A stretch of DNA of 32,000 bases from an archaeon GW2011_AR10 (GTDB lineage Archaea; Iainarchaeota; Iainarchaeia; Iainarchaeales; GW2011-AR10), in contig CP010424.1 of the NCBI GenBank assembly GCA_000830275.1, positions 450,001-482,000 on the forward strand, given 5' to 3'. The translations under genes and the position numbers were made by a program. Below, piece after piece: positions 8,687-24,364 of the stretch. How positions within the stretch are numbered: position 1 is the stretch's first letter; the number at the start of each line of letters is the position of its first letter. Under the pieces are notes generated by a model. That model was not told where the DNA came from, searched no databases, and worked only from the letters and a program-made list of their open reading frames with translations.

Positions 8687-9061
8687 ATGAATGAAAAAAC
8701 TATTGTGCTTGAATTAAGGGAAGGTGAAGACATCCTTGATGCGGTTAGGGAGGCATCAAAACAGTATTCCATCAATTTCGGGTTTTTTGTTGAAGCAGAC
8801 GGCACCCTGAAGGACTGTGAACTGGTTTACAATGAACCAAAGCGCGGAATAGTGAAAACCGCTTTCAGGGACACGTTCAAAATAACTGCAATAAGCGGCC
8901 AAATACAAAAAGAAAAAGACGGTTCAATAAACCCACTAATGAATGTTGCATTGCTTGGTTCCAGAACAGGCTCAAAGTCAGGACTGCTGGTCGGCGGGAA
9001 AGCATCGAAAGCACTCAAAATAAGGCTCAGAAAAGTCGACCTCGCGAAAATAATTAAGTAG
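8687..9061 (+). CDS. PPC/DUF296-like domain protein
   Basis: KITAISGQI...DGSINPLMNVALLG...GLLVGG resembles the PPC (DUF296) core. ATG at 8687 is preceded by GGAGG (8675-8679). The ORF-track start at 8666 is a GTG. Confidence 0.55.
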   Translation: MNEKTIVLELREGEDILDAVREASKQYSINFGFFVEADGTLKDCELVYNEPKRGIVKTAFRDTFKITAISGQIQKEKDGSINPLMNVALLGSRTGSKSGLLVGGKASKALKIRLRKVDLAKIIK

Positions 9062-9088
9062 GGGAGAACACAAGGCTTCCCTGCTCTA

Positions 9089-9222
9089 TAGCAAACAGCT
9101 TTAATTTTTGAACATCTAATTTGCTGTTTGCTAGTTGCAAAATGCAATTTTTTTTCAAATACACGGGCATTTTGCTCTACTTCCCCATTAACGCGTTTAA
9201 TGGTTTGTTAATAATGGGAAGT
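9089..9222. repeat. Array of three long-stem hairpins (locus A); the first belongs to a module repeated at 23257-23315
   Basis: H1: 9089-9099 pairs with 9123-9133 (11 bp, 23-nt loop). H2: 9137-9145 pairs with 9167-9175 (9 bp, 21-nt loop). H3: 9179-9190 pairs with 9212-9222 (11 bp with one bulged C). Three-nt spacers separate the hairpins. A T8 run lies at 9148-9155. Confidence 0.8.
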
Positions 9223-9369
9223 GAACATGAGAGGAGGTTTGGACCTAAAAAAAGAGGGCTTTTAATACCCTTCGTACAGAAGTATAGAATTGATTATTCC
9301 TCAAAAAAAGCGTTTTTCTTTGAAAAACTAATTTTTTTTGGAGTAACGAGAAAAAAAAGGAGAGGTAGT

Positions 9370-9546
9370 ATGGGATTCAGGGACAACAGGTTTGGTGGCC
9401 CAAGGCAAATGTTTGACGCCGTTTGTTCTGACTGCGGGCAGGACACTCAGGTTCCGTTCAAGCCAACCGAGGGAAGACCTGTCTATTGCAGGGACTGCTA
9501 CGCAAAGCACGCCCCCCCAAGAAGCAGAGACCGAGGAAATTACTGA
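9370..9546 (+). CDS. CxxC-x17-CxxC zinc-binding small protein
   Basis: MGFRDNRFGGPRQMFDAVCSDCGQDTQVPFKPTEGRPVYCRDCY... has exactly 17 residues between the Cys pairs and the VPFxP...RPVYCxxC pattern. GGAGAGG lies upstream of the ATG at 9370. The 9121 extension is implausible. Confidence 0.7.
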   Translation: MGFRDNRFGGPRQMFDAVCSDCGQDTQVPFKPTEGRPVYCRDCYAKHAPPRSRDRGNY

Positions 9547-11847: not shown

Positions 11848-12495
11848 GTGGTTAAGTACACGATTGTGAATTTGGTTGCTTCAGCTAATTTGAATGCAAC
11901 TCTGGACTTGTATAATCTTGCAATAACGATTCCGAACATTGAGTACGAGCCGGAGCAATTCCCTGGAGCAATCCTGAAGCTGAAGGAGCCAAAGGTTTCA
12001 ATGCTCTTGTTCAAGAACGGGAAAGTTATTTGCAGCGGGGCAAGCAATGAAAAGGACATTTCGTTGGCTGTTTTTAAGGCAAGCAAGCTTATACACGAAA
12101 TTCAGAAAAGCGTGAAAATACAGAAGAATGCAGACTACACTGTTGTAAACCTTGTGGCAACGGCAAACCTCAACATGACTCTTGACTTGTTCAAGACTGC
12201 AATGAACTTAGACAACGTTGAGTACGAGCCGGAACAATTCCCTGGAGCAATTTTAAGGATACACGAGCCAAAGCTGACTCTGCTGTTGTTCAAGAACGGC
12301 AAGCTTATTTGTGCTGGAGCAAAAAAAGAGGAGTTCCTGAAAAAAGGCTTAAGGAAAGCTGGAACGCTTATTAGGTCAGTCAACAAGGAAGCGAAAAAGG
12401 CAAAACCTGAAAAGCCTAAAACCCCGAAAAAACAGAAAGAAAAGCCTGCAGCAACAGGAAAAACCGCGAAAGACGACCAAAAGAAGAAAAAGTAA
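11848..12495 (+). CDS. tbp: TATA-box binding protein with a C-terminal Lys-rich extension
   Basis: Two TBP repeats, each with NLVAS/NLVAT, EYEPEQFPGAIL and LLFKNGK. A stop lies immediately upstream, and the first ATG would fall inside repeat 1, so the GTG at 11848 must be the start. Confidence 0.95.
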   Translation: MVKYTIVNLVASANLNATLDLYNLAITIPNIEYEPEQFPGAILKLKEPKVSMLLFKNGKVICSGASNEKDISLAVFKASKLIHEIQKSVKIQKNADYTVVNLVATANLNMTLDLFKTAMNLDNVEYEPEQFPGAILRIHEPKLTLLLFKNGKLICAGAKKEEFLKKGLRKAGTLIRSVNKEAKKAKPEKPKTPKKQKEKPAATGKTAKDDQKKKK

Positions 12496-12527: not shown

Positions 12528-12645
12528 TGATTAGCGACCACAGTGGCAGGGAAACACCTGGTCTCATCTCGAACCCAGAAGTTAAGCCTGCTACGATTAA
12601 GTTCGCGCTGGGTTTTTACTTGGAGCGGCTGGTTGTTGCTAATCA
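12528..12645 (+). rRNA. 5S ribosomal RNA, not linked to 16S/23S in this window
   Basis: ...gcgaccacagtggcagggaaacacctggtctcatctcgaacccagaagttaagcctgctacg... matches the conserved 5S core. The terminal helix pairs tgattagc with gctaatca. A T-run follows at 12654-12661. Ends are uncertain by about 3 nt. Confidence 0.85.
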
Positions 12646-12657
12646 CTTGAAACTTTT

Positions 12658-12756
12658 TTTTAAGAAAAGGTTTATCAAAATGCAGCTTCGCAAAAACCTT
12701 TTAAGAAAAGGTTTATCAAAACGCAGCTTCGCAAAAACCTTTTAAGAAAAGGCTTT
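12658..12756. repeat. 41-nt tandem direct repeat (2.4 copies) with palindromic unit junctions
   Basis: The unit ttttaagaaaaggtttatcaaaaYgcagcttcgcaaaaacc occurs at 12658-12698 and 12699-12739 with one mismatch. A partial third copy follows. The junction forms aaacctttt-aag-aaaaggttt, a 9-bp stem. Confidence 0.9.
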
Positions 12757-16305: not shown

Positions 16306-18228
16306 ATGGAAGAGCAGAAAAAGAAAAGCCTTCTGGAGAGAATAGACAAGAAAGAGCTGTTCTTTGTATTGCTGATTTTCCTGCTTGCATTCGGAGTAAG
16401 AGGGCACCTAATGAGGTATGACTTGCCTTTCGGATTTGACCCGTATTTTCATGCAAGAGTTGCTGGTTACGTTGCTGAAACATTTACCATTCCCCAATAT
16501 GACTGGCTAGGTTACTATCAGCTTGAAAACCCTGACATGCCTAAAACAGGCGCATTCTTCTGGTTTTTCACTGCAATCTTATACAAAATCTTCACGCTTG
16601 GCGCAGCATTCAACAAAGAGCTCTGGACAAACTTTGTGAAGTTTTTTCCGGCATTTTTTGGGGCATTAATCAGTGTTTCAATGTATTTTCTTGGCAAGGA
16701 AATGTACGGCAAGAAGGCAGGAATTGTAATGGCGCTGTTTGCTGCGATTGTGCCGGCCTTTGTGTACAGGACAATGGCCGGAACTTTTGAAGAGGACTCC
16801 CTTGGGTTCCTCTGGATGGTTGTTGGCTTAATTTTCTTTGTTCGGGCTGCAAAGCCGTTAAGGTTCGACAAGCCGGCAATAATAAACTCTCTTGTTGCTG
16901 CAGTATTTTTTGCTGTGATGGCTTGGACATGGGAAATGTTCTTGCTGATACCTTACATTATGCTTGCGTACATGGGGTTAACCGGTGCAGTAATGTGGTT
17001 CAGGAATGAGGATAAAGAAAAAATTTTTAGCCTTGCAAAAGTTTTCGTGCTGACAATGGTTGTGTTCTCGGCTCTTACAATTGCATTCATTGGCATTGGG
17101 TGGCTTGACAGGTTCACTGGCTACATAACACAGTATGCGCCGATTTCGCCTGAAAACATTGAACGAGCCACCACTAGAAACACCAGCACTGTTCTTGGAT
17201 TAACTGTTGGGGAAGAAAATACTGGCAGGCAGTTCTGGGGAGAAAAATACAATGCCCTGATAATTTTTCCTTTCCTTGCGCTGCTGTTAATCCCTTACCG
17301 TGTTTTCAGGAGCAGGCAGGACCATTTGTCGTTCATTATTTTTTTCTGGGTTCTTTTGACAATGTTCATGGCGTGGGGCAAGCTGAAGTTCACTTACACT
17401 CTGGGTTTGCCGATTGCTGCTGCAGCAGGCATTGTTTTCTCTGAGGTTTTAGTTTTCCTTGGAAACAGGACACAGTTCGAGAAGAAAACAGTGGGCATAG
17501 CGCTTGCATTCATGGTTCTGATTGGATTGGGGGCTGCAAGCATTTTTGTTACAACAAAGGTGCCAAACATTGAGCTGAACACAGGGTGGAAGGAAACACT
17601 GTACTGGCTGAAGGATAGCACGCCAACTGATTCAAAGCTCTTCAACTGGTGGGACCAGGGCCACTGGCTGACTTACGTTGCAGAGCGAGGCACAATAACA
17701 GACAACAGGAACTTGAGCGGTGAAGCAAACTCGGCTTACGGCCTGTTTGTTATTGCAGAGGATGAGGAGGAGGCTTACTCGATTGTGAAAGAGTTTGGTT
17801 CGGATTATGTTATTCTTGGCGCGGACATAGTGGAAAAGCTTGGCTCAATTGGCCTCTATGCTTACAATACGCCGAATGGTTTGGATCCAAGAGTGCAGAG
17901 GCTTGACCGCTCTGGAATAATTTTTGAATGCAACAGGAACGCTGACCAGCTTTCAGGGCAAGTAACGTACCAGTGCGGCGGCAACAATTTTTCGGAAGCA
18001 CAAATGCTGAGCTTTCCCACAACATACCTTAATGCGCCGAACCAGGTTATTGACCAGAGGAACCTTGGCTTTGTTTACAGGTCCAAGGACAATTCTCTGC
18101 TAGTAGTACTCAACCCTGTTGGCAACAAGTCAATGGCTGCAAGGCTCTGGTTTAATGACCCAAACATTAAGCACTTTGAGGAAGTATTTTACAGCAAGCA
18201 GGTAAAGGTATTCAAGGTAGTGGATTAA
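16306..18228 (+). CDS. aglB: Oligosaccharyltransferase AglB (STT3 homolog)
   Basis: WWDQGHW (the WWDxG catalytic motif), N-terminal multi-TM domain with FGFDPYFH and FEEDS acidic loops, and a soluble C-terminal domain. Confidence 0.9.
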   Translation: MEEQKKKSLLERIDKKELFFVLLIFLLAFGVRGHLMRYDLPFGFDPYFHARVAGYVAETFTIPQYDWLGYYQLENPDMPKTGAFFWFFTAILYKIFTLGAAFNKELWTNFVKFFPAFFGALISVSMYFLGKEMYGKKAGIVMALFAAIVPAFVYRTMAGTFEEDSLGFLWMVVGLIFFVRAAKPLRFDKPAIINSLVAAVFFAVMAWTWEMFLLIPYIMLAYMGLTGAVMWFRNEDKEKIFSLAKVFVLTMVVFSALTIAFIGIGWLDRFTGYITQYAPISPENIERATTRNTSTVLGLTVGEENTGRQFWGEKYNALIIFPFLALLLIPYRVFRSRQDHLSFIIFFWVLLTMFMAWGKLKFTYTLGLPIAAAAGIVFSEVLVFLGNRTQFEKKTVGIALAFMVLIGLGAASIFVTTKVPNIELNTGWKETLYWLKDSTPTDSKLFNWWDQGHWLTYVAERGTITDNRNLSGEANSAYGLFVIAEDEEEAYSIVKEFGSDYVILGADIVEKLGSIGLYAYNTPNGLDPRVQRLDRSGIIFECNRNADQLSGQVTYQCGGNNFSEAQMLSFPTTYLNAPNQVIDQRNLGFVYRSKDNSLLVVLNPVGNKSMAARLWFNDPNIKHFEEVFYSKQVKVFKVVD

Positions 18229-18304
18229 GGCAGCCTGTCCAGCTTTGTACCAAAACCCCTTTAAAAAACGACTAAAGGTTAATTATTGTTGGAATGGTGT
18301 TTGA

Positions 18305-19333
18305 ATGGGCGATTTCCCCCTCGTTATTTTAGCTACTTTTTTAAGTGCCTTTGCTGTAACCGCTATTGTAACTCCTTTCCTCATCAAAAGGTTCAAGGAA
18401 AGGGGCTTAACCGGCATTGACATGAACAAGTACAGCAAGCCAAAAGTGCCGGAAATGGGGGGCATTGCAGTTCTTTTCGGTTTTGCTTTCTCGGTCATGG
18501 TTGCATTGGGTGCCTACGGCTTCCTTGGCTTTAATTCACTGAACCTAACTGCATTGCTCGCGGCTTTTTCAACAGTGCTGATTGTCGGCTTAATTGGAGT
18601 CTTTGATGATTTGATTGGCTGGAAAAAAGGAATAGAGCAATGGCAGCACGCGCTTGTGCCTGTTTTTGCTGCTCTTCCACTAATGGTTCTCCCTGAAAGC
18701 ATTGGTTTTACCGAGCTGACAATTCCTTTCATTGGGCCGGTTGCGTTCGGCACCCTTTATCCGCTGGTTATTGTGCCACTAGCAATAACAGGTGCAAGCA
18801 ATGCAGCGAACATGCTTGCAGGCTACAATGGCCTTGAAGCAGGAATGGGTTCAATCATTTCCTTCACTATTCTTGCAATAGTGTTTTTCCTTCCATTAGA
18901 CCATGCGGGAAAATTTGAGGTAATGATTTTGATGGCTGGAATGCTTGGAGCGCTGCTCTCATTCCTTCGATTCAACTGGTTCCCTGCAAAAATTTTTGGC
19001 GGGGATTCCCTTACTTTAATGATTGGCGCAAGCATTGCCGCGGTTGCAATCATCGGCAACATTGAAAAGATTGCTATGCTGCTTTTTGCAATATACTTTG
19101 CGGAATTGGTGTTCAAGCTGGGAAGCAGGCTTAAAGCAGAGTGCTTTGGTTTGCCACAAAAAGACGGAACGCTGAAAGCACACCCAAAAGGAGGCAGCCT
19201 AACCCACTGGGTTCTCCGCAGAGGCATTAACACTGAAAAACAGGTTGTTTTCGCAATTCTGGGATTGCAGGTTATTGTTTCAGGCCTCGTGTTTTTTCTG
19301 TTCTGGTTCAAGCTTTTCAAGCTGATAGGTTAA
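18305..19333 (+). CDS. GT4-family UDP-GlcNAc:dolichyl-phosphate GlcNAc-1-phosphate transferase (Alg7/AglH type)
   Basis: NAANMLAGYNGLEAG has the eukaryal/archaeal AGxNGLE form rather than the bacterial DGxDGL form. Also VFDDLIGW and FGGDSLTL; polytopic membrane protein. Confidence 0.85.
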   Translation: MGDFPLVILATFLSAFAVTAIVTPFLIKRFKERGLTGIDMNKYSKPKVPEMGGIAVLFGFAFSVMVALGAYGFLGFNSLNLTALLAAFSTVLIVGLIGVFDDLIGWKKGIEQWQHALVPVFAALPLMVLPESIGFTELTIPFIGPVAFGTLYPLVIVPLAITGASNAANMLAGYNGLEAGMGSIISFTILAIVFFLPLDHAGKFEVMILMAGMLGALLSFLRFNWFPAKIFGGDSLTLMIGASIAAVAIIGNIEKIAMLLFAIYFAELVFKLGSRLKAECFGLPQKDGTLKAHPKGGSLTHWVLRRGINTEKQVVFAILGLQVIVSGLVFFLFWFKLFKLIG

Positions 19334-19343
19334 ACTGAGTCAA

Positions 19344-19808
19344 ATGGCTAAAGAAGTTGCTTTGAAGCTGTGCCTTGCTTGCTCTGGCGGAGGGCACTTA
19401 AGCGAATTAATGCAGTTAGAGGAATTCTACATGGAACAAGAGCGCTTCTTTGTTACTTTCAAGAGACCTAATTCTGAGGAACTGGCAAAAAAGGAAAGAG
19501 TTTACTTTGTAACTGACCCAGGCAGAAACCCTGTTGCATTGGCAAAAAACTTTTTTGAAAGCATGAAGGTTTTTCGAAAAGAGAAACCGGATGCAGTTGT
19601 AACAACAGGGGCAGGAGTTGCTTTCCCCATCAGCCTGATTGCAAAGCTTGCTGGGAAAAAGGTTGTTTACATTGAGAGCTTCTGCAGGATAAGCAGCCCG
19701 AGCCTCAGCGCTAGGCTTTTTTACCCGATTGCGGACAAGTTCTTCGTGCAGTGGCCGCAGATGAAAAAGTTTTTTCCGAAAGCAGTGTTTGCCGGAGGGG
19801 TTTTCTGA
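19344..19808 (+). CDS. Alg14-like glycosyltransferase subunit
   Basis: CSGGGHLSELMQL, PDAVVTTGAGVAFP and YIESFCRISSPSLSARL..FFVQW match the Alg14/PssD pattern. No N-terminal TM helix. Confidence 0.85.
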   Translation: MAKEVALKLCLACSGGGHLSELMQLEEFYMEQERFFVTFKRPNSEELAKKERVYFVTDPGRNPVALAKNFFESMKVFRKEKPDAVVTTGAGVAFPISLIAKLAGKKVVYIESFCRISSPSLSARLFYPIADKFFVQWPQMKKFFPKAVFAGGVF

Positions 19809-20287
19809 TGATTTTCGTAACTGTGGGAACGCACACGCAGCAGTTCAACAGGCTGCTGGAAAAAGTTGATGAATTAGTTGAGGGAAAAAAAATCAAGGAA
19901 GAGGTTTTTGCGCAGACAGGCAACTCTTCTTTTGAGCCAAAAAACTTTTCCTTCAAGAAGTTCCTGAATGCAGCAGAGTTCGAGGAAAAAATAGGGAAGA
20001 GTTCCATTGTGATAAGCCATGGAGGTGCGGGAGCAATAATCAGCGCGCTGCGACACAATAAACCATTGGTTGTTGTGCCAAGGCTGCTTGAGTTCAAGGA
20101 ACACACCAACTCACACCAGGTTGATTTGGCCAAAGCACTGCACGAGAAAGGGAAAGCAATAGCGGTTTTTGAATTGAACGGATTGGAGAATGCTGTAAGG
20201 AAAGCGAAAAGTTTTTCTCCGAAGGTCAGCGAGGAAAGGAAAAGGCTAGTAAAAGCATTAAACGATTTTTTCGGTGAAGGAAAATGA
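19808..20287 (+). CDS. Alg13-like glycosyltransferase subunit (GT28 C-terminal domain)
   Basis: MIFVTVGTH.QQFNRL, ISHGGAGAI and PLVVVPR...HTNSHQ..LA match Alg13/PssE. The ATG overlaps the Alg14 stop (TGATG). Confidence 0.85.
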   Translation: MIFVTVGTHTQQFNRLLEKVDELVEGKKIKEEVFAQTGNSSFEPKNFSFKKFLNAAEFEEKIGKSSIVISHGGAGAIISALRHNKPLVVVPRLLEFKEHTNSHQVDLAKALHEKGKAIAVFELNGLENAVRKAKSFSPKVSEERKRLVKALNDFFGEGK

Positions 20288-21273
20288 ACAAGCAAATGAT
20301 TGTTTCATACCTTGTCAGCTTGTTGCTTGTTGCAATAATAATCGCTTTTGTTGACTTGGAGGAAGTGCTCAGGCAGGTAATTGGCTTTGGTGCAGTGCAT
20401 TTCACTGTTATTTCAGTGCTTTCAATTGCAACATTCGTGTTTAGGGGAATTATCTGGAAAGAGCTTCTGAAGCCGTTCACTGAAATATCGCTGCTGGAAT
20501 CAACTTACATCACAACAATAGGTTTTTTTGCAAACAACGTGCTGCCGCTGCGAATCGGTGAAATAGTCAGGGCTTACGTGCTCTCAGTGCACAAAAAAAT
20601 CGGAAAAGTGAAATCGTTTTCCTCTGTTTTGGCGGAGAGAATAGTTGAGGGCTTAACGCTTGTGGCTTTTTTTGTGGCAGGAATTGCTTTCCTGCCAAGC
20701 ATTGGCCCTGAACTGAAGCAGCTCATTCTCTTGCCTGTTGCGTTGTTCGTTGCGCTTCTGCTCGTGTTCTTGTTCCCTGGAAAAGCGCTTGCAATCACAA
20801 GGAAACTGTTTTCAGGCTTTAAGTTTTTTTACAAAGTTGAGCACTTGCTTGAGGATTTTGTAAGCGGCGGAAAAGCAATGAGAAATGGCTTGAGGCCGAA
20901 CGCAATTATTTGGGGTGCGTCAATTGCAACCTGGGGTTTGCTTGCAGTAATATACCATGTTGCGGCAGTACAGCTTGGGCTGGAGTTTTCTTTGGCTGAG
21001 CTCCTGCTTTTGGTGTCTGTTACCGGCCTCAGCGTAATGATTCCATCTGCTCCCGGCTTCATTGGCACGTTTGAATTTGGCTTCATTCTGGCTTTCAGTG
21101 CCCTGGGTTTAAGCGCTGAAGCAGCAACATCAATGGCAGTAATACTCCATCTTGCATTCTGGATTTCCACAAACATTGCCGGCCTTATTGCATTGAACAG
21201 GCTGAACCTTTCGTTCAGCAGCATAATGGCAATGGAGAAAGTGGAGGAAGCCAAGGAACGGGCTGTTAAATAA
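20284..21273 (+). CDS. Flippase-like / LPG-synthase-TM (UPF0104) family membrane protein
   Basis: About 8 TM segments and the FFANNVLPLRIGEIVRAYVL family motif. The ATG overlaps the Alg13 stop (ATGA). Confidence 0.75.
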   Translation: MNKQMIVSYLVSLLLVAIIIAFVDLEEVLRQVIGFGAVHFTVISVLSIATFVFRGIIWKELLKPFTEISLLESTYITTIGFFANNVLPLRIGEIVRAYVLSVHKKIGKVKSFSSVLAERIVEGLTLVAFFVAGIAFLPSIGPELKQLILLPVALFVALLLVFLFPGKALAITRKLFSGFKFFYKVEHLLEDFVSGGKAMRNGLRPNAIIWGASIATWGLLAVIYHVAAVQLGLEFSLAELLLLVSVTGLSVMIPSAPGFIGTFEFGFILAFSALGLSAEAATSMAVILHLAFWISTNIAGLIALNRLNLSFSSIMAMEKVEEAKERAVK

Positions 21274-21305
21274 AGTTTTTGCTCAAGAATTTTTTAGTGA
21301 GGCAA

Positions 21306-22133
21306 ATGCCTGAGAAAGCAATGGTTTCAATCCTAATCCAGCACAAGAACGGTGAAAAAGTGCTGGAAGCCTGCTTGAGGTCACTCAAGGAGAATACTTC
21401 CTACAAGCCGCTTGAAGTAATCCTCTTAGACAACGGCAGCACGGACAAAAGCATTGAAGGGGTGCTGGAAAAGTTTCCTTGGGTTAAGGTCATAAAAAAC
21501 AAAAAATTTGTTTCACTGGCGGATGGGGTTAACGTTGGTTTTGGGAAAGCAAAGGGCGCATATCTAATGTGGCTGAACAATGACACGTTAATGGAGAAGG
21601 GCTGGCTTGAAGAGCTTGTAACTGCGTTGGAATCCAAAAAAGAGGTTGCAGCTGTCTCTCCAGTTATTCTGCCAATGGACGCTGAGCCAAAAAAAGAAGC
21701 GAGAACGTATGTTGAAAAAATTTCCCTTATCGGCGCATGCATTCTAATCAACAGGAGGGCATGGGAAAGGGTTGGGGGCTTTGACGGAGAAAACTTTAAG
21801 CCTGCTTACGGAGAGGAAAATGACTGGTGTTATCGCGCGAGAAATGCCGGCTTTAAGCTGCTGGAAGTGCGCTCAAGCCAGGTATGGCACTTGGGCTCTT
21901 ACACTGCGGAAAAAATTGTAAAGCAAAGGTATTTGCTTGAGAACACGCACAGGCTGAAAGCAATGCTTTACAATCTTAAGTTGCCTGATTTGATTAGGTT
22001 TGTTCCGGGGCTTACGCTGATTTTCCTGAATTCTTTAAGGCAGGGAAGCACTTTTTTCCTGCTGCAAAGCTACTGGGAGAACCTGAAAAACATTAAAACG
22101 ATTTTTGCTGAAAGAAAACATAGGTTAGGATGA
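21306..22133 (+). CDS. Family 2 glycosyltransferase
   Basis: VSILIQHKNG, LLDNGSTD, NNDT and GEENDWCYRARNAGF are typical GT2 (RfbF/WbbL-like) motifs. Alternative starts are TTG 21279 and ATG 21321. Confidence 0.85.
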   Translation: MPEKAMVSILIQHKNGEKVLEACLRSLKENTSYKPLEVILLDNGSTDKSIEGVLEKFPWVKVIKNKKFVSLADGVNVGFGKAKGAYLMWLNNDTLMEKGWLEELVTALESKKEVAAVSPVILPMDAEPKKEARTYVEKISLIGACILINRRAWERVGGFDGENFKPAYGEENDWCYRARNAGFKLLEVRSSQVWHLGSYTAEKIVKQRYLLENTHRLKAMLYNLKLPDLIRFVPGLTLIFLNSLRQGSTFFLLQSYWENLKNIKTIFAERKHRLG

Positions 22134-22161
22134 GAAAGTGAATGAAAACTCTTTAAAGGAA

Positions 22162-23136
22162 ATGAAAGGGCAGAGAGTGCTTGTTCTCGGCGGCCTCGGA
22201 TTTTTTGGCAGCAATATTGTTCACAAATGCGTTGGGCTTGGAGCAGAGGTAACGGTTTTTGACGCAATGATTGAGCCATACGGTTTTAACCTTGCAAACC
22301 TTAAAGGAATTGAGAAAAAAGTTGGGCTGCTAAAACAGGACATGAGGAATTTTGGGGATTTGAGCAAAGCAGTTAAGGAAAAGGATTTGATTTTTAATTG
22401 CGCTGGGCAAGTAAGCCACGTTGACTCAATGAAGGAACCATTCCTTGACATTGAACTCAACATTGTTGCAAACTTGAACCTGCTGGAAGCGTGCAGGAAA
22501 TTCAATGGTAATGCAAAAATCGTTTATGCAGGCACGCGCGCACAGGTCGGCAAGGCAGAGTACACTCCAATAGATGAAAAGCATCCCACAAACCCTGTTG
22601 ACGTTTACGGCATTGACAAGCTGACAGCTGAAAAGTATCTGCTGCTTTACAGCAGCGCTTACGGAATTAAAGGCGTTTCAATTCGCTCCACCAACGGTTT
22701 TGGCCCGAGGCACCAGATGAAGCACGGCCTTTACGGGATACTTAACTGGTTCATTCGGCTGGCGCTGGAGGGAAAAACAATTTCGGTTTATGGAACGGGA
22801 GAGCAGTTAAGGGATTACCTCTACATTGACGACATTGTTAATGCAATGGTTTCGTGCGGGCAATCGGAGAAAGCAAACGGGCAAATTTACAATGTGAGTT
22901 CAGGGAAAGGCATTAAGTTCATTGAAATGGTGAAAAAAATTATTGAGTTCTCAGGAAAAGGAAAGTATGAGCTGAAACCGTTTCCAGAGGAAAGGAAAAT
23001 GATTGAAACAGGCGACGTTGTTTTAAGCTACAAAAAAATTAACAGGGAGCTTGGCTGGGAGCCTTTAACTTCTTTTGATGACGGCCTGAAAAAAACCATT
23101 GATTTTTATAAGAAGCACTTGAAGGAATATGTATAG
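22162..23136 (+). CDS. NAD-dependent sugar epimerase/dehydratase (extended SDR)
   Basis: VLVLGGLGFFGSNIV Rossmann motif and YGIDKLTAEKY (YxxxK). Alternative GTG start at 22138. Confidence 0.85.
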   Translation: MKGQRVLVLGGLGFFGSNIVHKCVGLGAEVTVFDAMIEPYGFNLANLKGIEKKVGLLKQDMRNFGDLSKAVKEKDLIFNCAGQVSHVDSMKEPFLDIELNIVANLNLLEACRKFNGNAKIVYAGTRAQVGKAEYTPIDEKHPTNPVDVYGIDKLTAEKYLLLYSSAYGIKGVSIRSTNGFGPRHQMKHGLYGILNWFIRLALEGKTISVYGTGEQLRDYLYIDDIVNAMVSCGQSEKANGQIYNVSSGKGIKFIEMVKKIIEFSGKGKYELKPFPEERKMIETGDVVLSYKKINRELGWEPLTSFDDGLKKTIDFYKKHLKEYV

Positions 23137-23161
23137 CAAAATGCTTATGTATTTGAGCAAA

Positions 23162-23316
23162 TAGCGAATGACTTTAATAATGGTAAAAAACAAGTCATTC
23201 GCTAGTCGCAAAAGACATTAAGAAATTACCAAAACCAATGTCTTTTGCTAAAAAACTGCATTTTGCAACCAGCAAACAGCAAATTAATGCTCAAAAATCA
23301 AAGCTGTTTGCTATAA
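23162..23316. repeat. Array of three long-stem hairpins (locus B); the third hairpin module is an inverted copy of 9087-9146
   Basis: H1: 23162-23174 pairs with 23192-23204 (13 bp, 17-nt loop). H2: 23208-23219 pairs with 23237-23248 (12 bp, 17-nt loop). H3: 23271-23280 pairs with 23303-23312 (10 bp, 22-nt loop). 23257-23315 aligns to the reverse complement of 9087-9146 with 56 of 60 columns identical. Confidence 0.85.
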
Positions 23317-23335
23317 AGTAAAACGCGGTGAACAA

Positions 23336-24364
23336 ATGAGCGAGCTTGTGATTGGCGGAGCAGGCTTTATTGGAGTAAACCTTGCTGAAAGGCTCTTGCA
23401 GCATGGAAAAAAAGTGGTGGTTTTCGACAACTTTTCAAGGAAAGGAACAGACAAGAACATTGAGTGGCTGAAAAAAAATTTTCCAAGCGTAAAAGTGGTG
23501 AAAGTAGACATCAGAAAAGATTTAATGGCACTTGAAAACTCGGTGAAGGATGCGGAAAACGTTTACCACATGGCGGCGCAAGTGGCTGTAACCACTTCTG
23601 TCACCAATCCGAGAGAGGATTTTGAAATTAATGCGCTTGGAACATTTAACGTTTTGGAAGCAATGCGGAAAACCGAAAGCAATGCAATGCTGGTTTTTGC
23701 GTCAACAAACAAGGTTTACGGCGCATTAGAGCAGGTGGAAATTGAAGAGACCGCAAAAAGGTTTGACTTCAAAAAACTAAAAAAAGGAGTCAGTGAGGAA
23801 ATGCCTTTGGATTTCCACAGCCCTTACGGCTGCAGCAAAGGAGCAGCAGACCAGTATGTTAGGGATTACAACAGGATTTATGGCTTGAACACTGTTGTTA
23901 TGCGCCAAAGCTGCATTTACGGAAAAAGGCAGTTCGGCATAGAAGACCAGGGCTGGGTTGCTTGGTTCAGCATTGCAACTCTTTTGAATAAAAAAATTAC
24001 TTTATACGGCAACGGAAAACAGGTTAGGGATGTATTGGATGTGAGGGATTTGGTTGACGCGTTTGAACTGGTTGTGAAAAACAAAAAGAAAACAACTGGC
24101 GAAATATTCAATGTTGGTGGCGGCCCTGCAAACGCAATTTCTTTGCTTGAGTTCCTTGAAATTCTTGAGCATAAGCTCGGGAAAAAAATTTCTTACAAAA
24201 AAGCTGGTGAAAGGCCAGGCGACCAGCCTGTTTACATCAGCAACAACAAAAAAATAGAGAAAACGCTTGGCTGGACACCAAAAATTTCTTACAAAAAAGG
24301 AATTAATGACTTGGTTGAATGGATTACACAAAACAAGGAAACAATAAAAGAAGTATTGCAGTAA
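23336..24364 (+). CDS. NAD-dependent epimerase, CDP-paratose 2-epimerase (RfbE)-like
   Basis: GGAGFIGVNL, FDNFSRKGTDKNIEWL, DFHSPYGCSKGAADQY, GLNTVVMRQSCIYG.RQF...DQGWVAWF and GNGKQVRDVL closely follow the RfbE/tyvelose-epimerase pattern as I recall it. Confidence 0.8.
   Translation: MSELVIGGAGFIGVNLAERLLQHGKKVVVFDNFSRKGTDKNIEWLKKNFPSVKVVKVDIRKDLMALENSVKDAENVYHMAAQVAVTTSVTNPREDFEINALGTFNVLEAMRKTESNAMLVFASTNKVYGALEQVEIEETAKRFDFKKLKKGVSEEMPLDFHSPYGCSKGAADQYVRDYNRIYGLNTVVMRQSCIYGKRQFGIEDQGWVAWFSIATLLNKKITLYGNGKQVRDVLDVRDLVDAFELVVKNKKKTTGEIFNVGGGPANAISLLEFLEILEHKLGKKISYKKAGERPGDQPVYISNNKKIEKTLGWTPKISYKKGINDLVEWITQNKETIKEVLQ

Follow-up and report, generated by a model that had tools for sequence, protein, structure and literature searches.

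The recurrent paired hairpins in this 32-kb stretch of archaeal DNA, the whole of which we call the window, are very probably copies of a 93-bp, non-coding and non-autonomous transposable element of the MITE type, belonging to a family common to the Iainarchaeota/Diapherotrites archaea of the DPANN assemblage. Its members are scattered and non-coding, have sharp boundaries, can be nested and differ in presence between lineages, and they combine conserved termini and subterminal motifs with hairpins that have been maintained. The window itself comes from a representative of Candidatus Diapherotrites (Iainarchaeota, DPANN) and carries archaeal genes, such as those for TBP, Rpb4/RpoF, L21e, KsgA, a KaiC-type ATPase, AglB/STT3, and Alg13/Alg14-like and other glycosylation proteins. 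Protein domain scans detected no transposase encoded within these 32 kb.

The first-pass annotation had reported a ~60-nt hairpin module present twice in opposite orientation, and realignment reproduces that match exactly: the reverse complement of 9087-9146 and the segment 23257-23315 are identical in 56 of 60 columns, with three T/C transitions and one 1-nt indel accounting for the remainder. The stem then proposed (AGCAAACAGC/GCTGTTTGCT), with its loop of 22-23 nt, is found at both loci, here termed copies A and B, and the chance expectation for such a stem-gap-stem pattern in the window is 0.02. An inverted-repeat search returned, as the top inverted repeats of the window, 9117-9159 with 23244-23286 and 9084-9115 with 23287-23318, each pair being 91% complementary. 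The module length was, however, underestimated: 9150-9180 also matches the reverse complement of 23131-23161 (81%), which extends the unit to 93 nt and adds a second hairpin. The homopolymer runs described as accompanying each module do exist (T8 at 9148-9155 and A6 at 23250-23255), but instead of being adjacent to it they lie inside the element, in the loop of this second hairpin. A search with a covariance model of the family (R1, built from 15 copies; cmsearch) recovered three copies in the window, one of them nested in another (E = 7e-18, 1e-11 and 1e-8), and no further copy within the 32 kb beyond these (Table 1). Copies A and B are 84% identical.

Table 1. Copies of the element and their hairpins in the window
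Feature	Positions	Strand	Details and basis
Copy A, complete 93-nt element, canonical orientation (TATAGC...GCTCTA)	9087..9179	+	cmsearch R1, 94 bits, E 7e-18, model 1-93; regex extraction
Copy A, hairpin X	9089..9133	+	Stem TAGCAAACAGC (9089-9099) / GCTGTTTGCTA (9123-9133), 23-nt loop with TTTTTGAAC; inverted-repeat search; RNA fold
Copy A, hairpin Y	9137..9175	+	Stem GCAAAATGC (9137-9145) / GCATTTTGC (9167-9175), 21-nt loop with T8 and TCAAATA; RNA fold; alignment
Copy B, host element, inverted relative to A, Y loop interrupted	23132..23315	-	Inverted repeats; alignment; cmsearch 23204-23315 (-), 65.1 bits, and 23132-23199 (-), 23.1 bits
Copy B, outer arm of Y and start of its loop	23132-23159	-	
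Copy B, remaining Y and X	23253-23315	-	
Copy B, stem of X	23271-23280 / 23303-23312	-	
Copy B, stem of Y	23136-23144 / 23258-23266	-	
Nested copy, second subfamily, in Y loop of B	23160..23252	+	cmsearch R1, 50.8 bits, E 1.2e-8, model 1-93; inverted repeats; fold
Nested copy, first hairpin	23163-23174 / 23192-23203		AGCGAATGACTT / AAGTCATTCGCT; joined to the second hairpin by GTC
Nested copy, second hairpin	23208-23219 / 23237-23248		GCAAAAGACATT / AATGTCTTTTGC

The full unit runs from TATAGC to GCTATA and consists of two hairpins, X and Y, with stems of 9-13 bp and loops of 21-23 nt, set tail to tail across a linker of 3-4 nt. Similarity among the 17 full-length copies begins at the TATAGC and ends at the GCTATA, with unrelated flanks beyond; these copies are 92-99 nt each and non-coding, and the element is at this length too short for a transposase. 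In all full copies the loop of X and that of Y align as reverse complements of each other, the former holding TTTTTGAAC and the latter (G)TTCAAATA. The conserved termini form an inverted repeat, TATAGCAAA...TTTGCTATA, which is perfect in most copies. It is part of a longer, imperfect inverted repeat of ~27 nt at the ends that includes the conserved subterminal motif TWTTTGAAC, located ~19-27 nt from either end, and the whole element is accordingly a near-palindrome with ~27-nt imperfect inverted ends. The outer 9-13 nt of each end can also pair with a complement of their own in the interior of the element, and it is this internal complement that yields the two-hairpin fold; end-to-end pairing appears in the folds of copy B. 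At locus A the layout on the plus strand is TATA-GCAAACAGC-(23 nt)-GCTGTTTGC-TA-GTT-GCAAAATGC-(21 nt)-GCATTTTGC-TCTA, and the outer ends form the terminal inverted repeat TATAGCAAA...TTTGCT(A/C)TA. The extra stretch of ~89-93 nt that separates the two matching blocks of copy B, in its Y loop, is the nested copy: it shares the family layout TAGC-stem...GCTA-GTY-GCAAAA-stem...TTTTGC, with inner stem sequences that differ.

By RNA folding the hairpins are stable, with z-scores from -3.7 to -8.9, and the value is -3.65 for a 106-nt stretch at copy A. In the 15-copy alignment, 99.3% of the stem cells form standard pairs, and 5 of the 20 stem pairs show compensatory changes, on both sides and between lineages, with the covariation resting on ~4 independent lineages. 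The search pattern by which copies were gathered did not force complementarity in X and left Y wholly unconstrained. In 500 shuffles neither the pairing score nor the covariation score was ever as high as observed, and pairing is lost when the partner columns are slid. We take the covariation as good, if not overwhelming, evidence for a maintained structure; templated repair within palindromes could mimic selection on the stems.

Both window copies had been described as intergenic. For copy A this stands: it lies between a PCC-domain gene (stop at 9061) and a small zinc-finger gene, the start of which is probably ATG 9370 (a 58-aa protein, the version annotated by NCBI in one MAG) rather than TTG 9121. 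The mechanical ORF 9121-9546 takes as its start the TTG 9121 inside hairpin X, with the zinc-finger domain far downstream, and other gene callers extend the same gene to 134 aa, back to ~9142, again inside the element. Copy B is not strictly intergenic. It sits between two epimerase/dehydratase genes (22138-23136 upstream and 23336-24364 downstream) at the end of an N-glycosylation cluster, and its terminal TATAG furnishes the upstream gene with its TAG stop codon (23134-23136); orthologues of that gene end at the same residue position. The cluster (16306-24364) looks complete for an archaeal N-glycosylation system, comprising AglB/STT3, a GT4-family transferase, Alg14- and Alg13-like proteins, an LPG-synthase-like membrane protein, a GT2 and the two epimerase/dehydratases; a relative at ~60-70% identity (L123) has the genes in the same order. 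The terminal TATA of copy B was considered as a promoter for the downstream gene and rejected: archaeal TATA boxes sit around -26/-27, and the TATAAAG here, only ~20 nt from the ATG, is too close. A read-through transcript, or one from an internal promoter, would be the more likely source of expression for that gene, which has a GGTGA Shine-Dalgarno motif in the flank. The earlier remark that the hairpin is oriented as a terminator for the upstream gene at locus A and not at locus B is only partly relevant, since termination in archaea depends on oligo-T runs and not on hairpins; moreover, the T8 run is peculiar to the Y loop of copy A and is not a family-wide feature. Elsewhere in the window, a lone 5S rRNA gene (12530-12644, plus strand; 70 bits) directly follows the TBP gene (11848-12495), with neither a 16S nor a 23S rRNA gene in the window, and is followed in turn by two 41-nt tandem direct repeats (12658-12739, 98% identical) with the palindrome AAACCTTTTAAGAAAAGGTTT.

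Beyond the window, relatives of the element were recovered by two kinds of scans. The scan of a genome collection used a stem-only pattern, and the matches listed include at least ~80 chance palindromes in unrelated bacteria; the relevant ones among those listed are L035, L059 and L075 only. These place the complete element in two contigs of a Ca. Iainarchaeum MAG, with an X stem identical to that of the window and a Y stem of GTGAAATGC/GCATTTCAC, and a single copy in the MAG of another uncultured archaeon, whose second-hairpin stem is unrelated, yet which the covariance model scores over its full length. The metagenome scan, with a pattern that required stem, loop motif and stem, yielded 20 further loci, 13 of them from a single Hainich groundwater sample (coverage 3-5) and two from other Hainich samples. 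That one sample holds ~12-13 distinct left flanks, and at least 5 other sources carry copies; the element also occurs in Rifle and other groundwater metagenomes. The Hainich stems (AGCAAACTGC/GCAGTTTGCT and GCAAAGAGC/GCTCTTTGC) belong to copies near-identical to each other; when set against the 84% identity of A and B, this indicates that copies differ in age. The copies are mostly intergenic, often only a few bases from a stop codon, occur in both orientations and lie between tandem, convergent and divergent gene pairs. Many Hainich copies are at contig ends, as expected of a repeat that breaks assemblies. Scans of viral contigs gave nothing, or chance matches devoid of the hairpin.

Contigs near-identical to the window come from Rifle and other groundwater metagenomes, and when we sought strain variants among them copies A and B proved to be fixed in all contigs seen. 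In the MAG GCA_013332025.1 (L001, 9877-9980), copy B seems to lack 80 nt, but this is an NN scaffold gap and was discarded as an insertion polymorphism. One Logan contig (L137) ends inside copy A. In another pair of contigs, the right flank in L112 (333-360) is, with one mismatch, the reverse complement of the left flank in L121 (114-140), and the same site adjoins the Y end in one of the contigs but the X end in the other, reflecting either an inversion of the element or misassembly through the repeat.

An insertion is recorded in the spacer between convergent deoA-like and ksgA genes, which constitutes a filled-versus-empty orthologous pair with the element edges at the TATA ends. The filled site, seen in Hainich contigs where the end of L114 overlaps the start of L108, reads TGA gcaaacggcact [TATAGC...GCTATA] gtg TTA. 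Between the same convergent genes, two relatives whose KsgA is 86% identical to that of the filled site have empty spacers of 17 nt (L128; TGA gcaaaccgcgcttggtg TTA) and 19 nt (L127; TGA gcaaaccgtgctttgtatt TTA). Retaining one TA of the filled site restores a 17-nt spacer like that of L128, with 14 of the 17 positions identical. The spacer length would thus favor a 2-bp TA duplication as the best fit, with a 4-bp TATA duplication or none at all also fitting. TA (or TATA) is present at both boundaries in 16 of 17 copies, where it is inseparable from the TATA ends of the element itself, and for the nested copy, taking TAGC...GCTA as the ends leaves AA...AA as flanks. At the epimerase locus, relatives at 62-72% protein identity have no element between the two genes, indicating that the operon does not include it as a conserved component. 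Relatives examined for a clean empty site for copy B offer none: L123 has a different, GC-rich repeat at this position, and L124-L126 have an extra gene. The repeat in L123 (9818-10000; Diapherotrites MAG GCA_043808785.1) is a ~62-nt tandem repeat with CGCGGTTTGAACCGCG hairpins, which shares a TTTGAAC core with the loops of the element and is not detected by the family model.

Nesting and clustering recur outside the window. In the contig L117 (115-395), at least 5 hairpin units of several subtypes stand in a row, among them the second subfamily known from the insert in copy B, and one canonical element has apparently inserted between two hairpins of that subfamily. The trailing 76 nt of this array, made up of a second-subfamily hairpin and the 3' half of Y, are identical to the window at 23128-23203 (reverse strand) in 71 of 76 positions. 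Solo or truncated hairpin units are found in L111, L115 and L121. In L115 (1-1500), an IS with a 388-aa DDE_Tnp_1 transposase directly follows hairpin X of the Hainich copy at the ksgA/deoA-like site. We considered this transposase as a partner of the element and dismissed it, as it belongs to a separate IS with its own inverted repeats (GGGGGTTTCTAA / TTAGAAACCCCC) that landed after hairpin X. What lies beyond the far end of this IS is not the remainder of the element, pointing to a rearrangement or a chimeric low-coverage contig.

We posit that a transposase whose gene lies elsewhere in the genome would mobilize such an element in trans, recognizing the termini together with the subterminal motif. 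Insertion would probably be at a TA dinucleotide, which is duplicated in the style of IS630/Tc1-mariner elements; this would explain the TA|TAGC...GCTA|TA configuration at nearly every boundary. A TA-duplicating DDE enzyme is favored by these near-universal TA...TA boundaries, by the symmetric, TIR-like ends, and by the resemblance of the conserved outer 10 nt and the motif at 19-27 to a cleavage site and a binding site, respectively. DDE cut-and-paste alone leaves unexplained the co-variation of the internal complements with the termini. The hairpins may be kept by selection or by templated repair, and they probably act on single-stranded DNA during mobilization or else in read-through transcripts. 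For the host, the predicted side effects include the provision by copy B of the stop codon of the upstream epimerase gene, the placement by the same copy of four stable hairpins in any transcript that would span both epimerase genes, and the positioning by copy A of a T8 run, a putative archaeal terminator-like signal, behind the PCC-domain gene. No autonomous IS with the same termini (TATAGCAAAC...GTTTGCTATA) was found in the window and the loci examined.

Among other explanations, the main rival, which we nonetheless consider unlikely, takes the ~44-nt hairpin as the basic unit and the 93-nt element as its tail-to-tail doublet, akin to REP/BIME/REPIN sequences and copied via single-stranded DNA by a hairpin-recognizing HUH/Y1 enzyme of the RAYT or IS200/IS605 TnpA-like kind, possibly a single-copy domesticated one that would account for long vertical persistence. 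Units are indeed modular, as seen in the L117 cluster and the solo or truncated units, and they form inverted doublets as do REPINs and the HH/TT REP dimers (PMC3733652, PMC3116915). Further, changes in the stems are coordinated so that the hairpins persist, each of three G-T wobble positions is on the canonical strand, and the element is 69-80% identical across genomes whose orthologous proteins are only ~45-65% identical. Vertical persistence of this kind would explain the conserved termini, the loop motifs and the compensatory stem changes between genomes with proteins only ~50-65% identical; however, the sharing between lineages could equally stem from horizontal spread among groundwater archaea that occur together. 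The stems of 9-13 bp fit the 5-13 bp reported for REPs, but the loops of 21-23 nt are just above the reported 2-20 nt, and an unpaired GTAG or CGTC tag is lacking, the TAG in the head TATAG being paired with CTA in the opposite arm (PMC3733652). Like TIRs, the ends show a symmetry that suits double-strand recognition, and no Y1 transposase (Y1_Tnp) is present among the proteins scanned or in the Pfam lists of the loci, which represent a small part of each genome. In the literature found, REP/RAYT systems are described for bacteria only. The bolder version, in which the hairpin doublets are the archaeal counterpart of REPINs, copied through single-stranded DNA by an HUH/Y1-like or a new enzyme and kept vertically for very long across the Iainarchaeota, strikes us as slightly less probable still.

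That the hairpins are instead structured small RNAs or cis-regulatory RNA or DNA signals, such as terminators, processing or stability elements or palindromic operators, kept by the host and not mobile, appears highly improbable. The stability of the hairpins (z = -3.7 to -8.9), their covariation, the conserved loop motifs, the intergenic position of the copies near gene ends and the T8 run behind the gene at copy A would all suit such a role, but the neighboring genes have no common function (purine synthesis, ksgA, an aCPSF/FttA-like nuclease, epimerases and a DHH phosphoesterase), and the copies are placed in both orientations between convergent, divergent and tandem genes. The element is also missing from orthologous sites in relatives, and a near-identical burst in one population together with nesting is typical of proliferation rather than of a regulon. 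No Rfam family supports this role either: the element has no match in Rfam 15 at the gathering score, where only the 5S rRNA passes in the window, and permissive thresholds give weak, sub-threshold matches at A and B to unrelated families. The first-pass annotation had proposed a mobile MITE/REP-like element beside an sRNA or protein-binding-site family. The former is borne out by the many copies with unrelated flanks in several related archaea, the sharp boundaries, the nested insertion and the filled-versus-empty site; the latter two may be secondary properties but are not needed to explain the data. As for chance similarity or a one-off segmental duplication within the genome, the 32 kb of the window show just two obvious copies, as this would have it, but we accord it next to no weight. 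Its prediction that only two copies exist, duplicated along with their flanks, fails against dozens of copies in other genomes and flanks that are unrelated, and the similarity, which the annotation had allowed might dissolve, persists on computational realignment. With a chance expectation of 0.02 and covariance-model E-values down to 7e-18, this explanation is already refuted.

A MITE-type element has good precedents in bacteria, where small MITEs are <200 bp long, A+T-rich and intergenic, with TIRs and 5'-TA-3' termini (PMC2229807). The Correia/NEMIS elements of Neisseria and the RUP elements of Streptococcus pneumoniae are likewise non-coding units of ~100 bp that are A+T-rich, mostly intergenic and bounded by TIRs with 5'-TA-3' ends; their transcripts fold into stable stem-loops, and RUP is thought to be moved by IS630-Spn1 (PMC2229807). 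RUP also inserts into other mobile elements (PMC2229807), comparable to which are the nesting and the IS within a copy seen here. In contrast to the mainly single, long end-to-end stem of Correia/NEMIS and RUP, the archaeal element has two arm hairpins with large conserved loops, and no sequence relationship between them is claimed. The REP/BIME/REPIN sequences with their RAYTs are similar in stem length, inverted doublets, clusters of units, complementary-stem subfamilies and apparent long persistence (PMC3733652, PMC3116915), but the archaeal element differs in its 21-23-nt, sequence-conserved loops, in having no GTAG/CGTC tag and in that no RAYT was seen in the loci examined. Like the element, the CIR repeats of Caulobacter and Brucella consist of two independent stem-loops with a short linker rather than one end-to-end stem (PMC2229807); these are, however, bacterial, have no TIRs, carry a GANTC methylation motif and have no known sequence relationship to it. 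Palindrome elements derived from IS200/IS605 have hairpins in the same orientation and no TIRs, whereas here the hairpins are mirror images and the ends form TIRs. Among archaea, Redder et al. are said to have described in 2001 the Sulfolobus MITEs SM1-SM4, reportedly derived from identified IS elements. These share with the present element their non-autonomous nature and bounding TIRs, but have an identified parent IS, where we found none. A 2024 census of MITEs reports high MITE densities in some DPANN genomes (PMC11602168). We found no description of the family in the literature searched, and it is apparently undescribed, if of a well-known kind; for the census (PMC11602168) this comparison concerns its descriptions of elements.

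DPANN archaea have very small, compact genomes and are known almost only from metagenomes, and in such genomes a sound, well-delimited family of this kind is of practical value for assembly and annotation. As a recurrent 93-bp repeat it disrupts assembly: several contigs terminate within it, and in one public MAG copy B contains an NN gap. It can also mislead gene calling, with callers extending ORFs into the element. The element can also change where genes end and how operon transcripts are structured; here it supplies a stop codon and sits within an N-glycosylation cluster. Strain typing can make use of it, as can efforts to follow gene flow between groundwater archaea that occur together. 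A more unusual possibility, of small likelihood, arises if the dependence on the hairpins is real: this would extend REPIN-like biology to the Archaea, and, were the copying through single-stranded DNA likewise true, the family would represent the first REP/RAYT-like replicator system in that domain.
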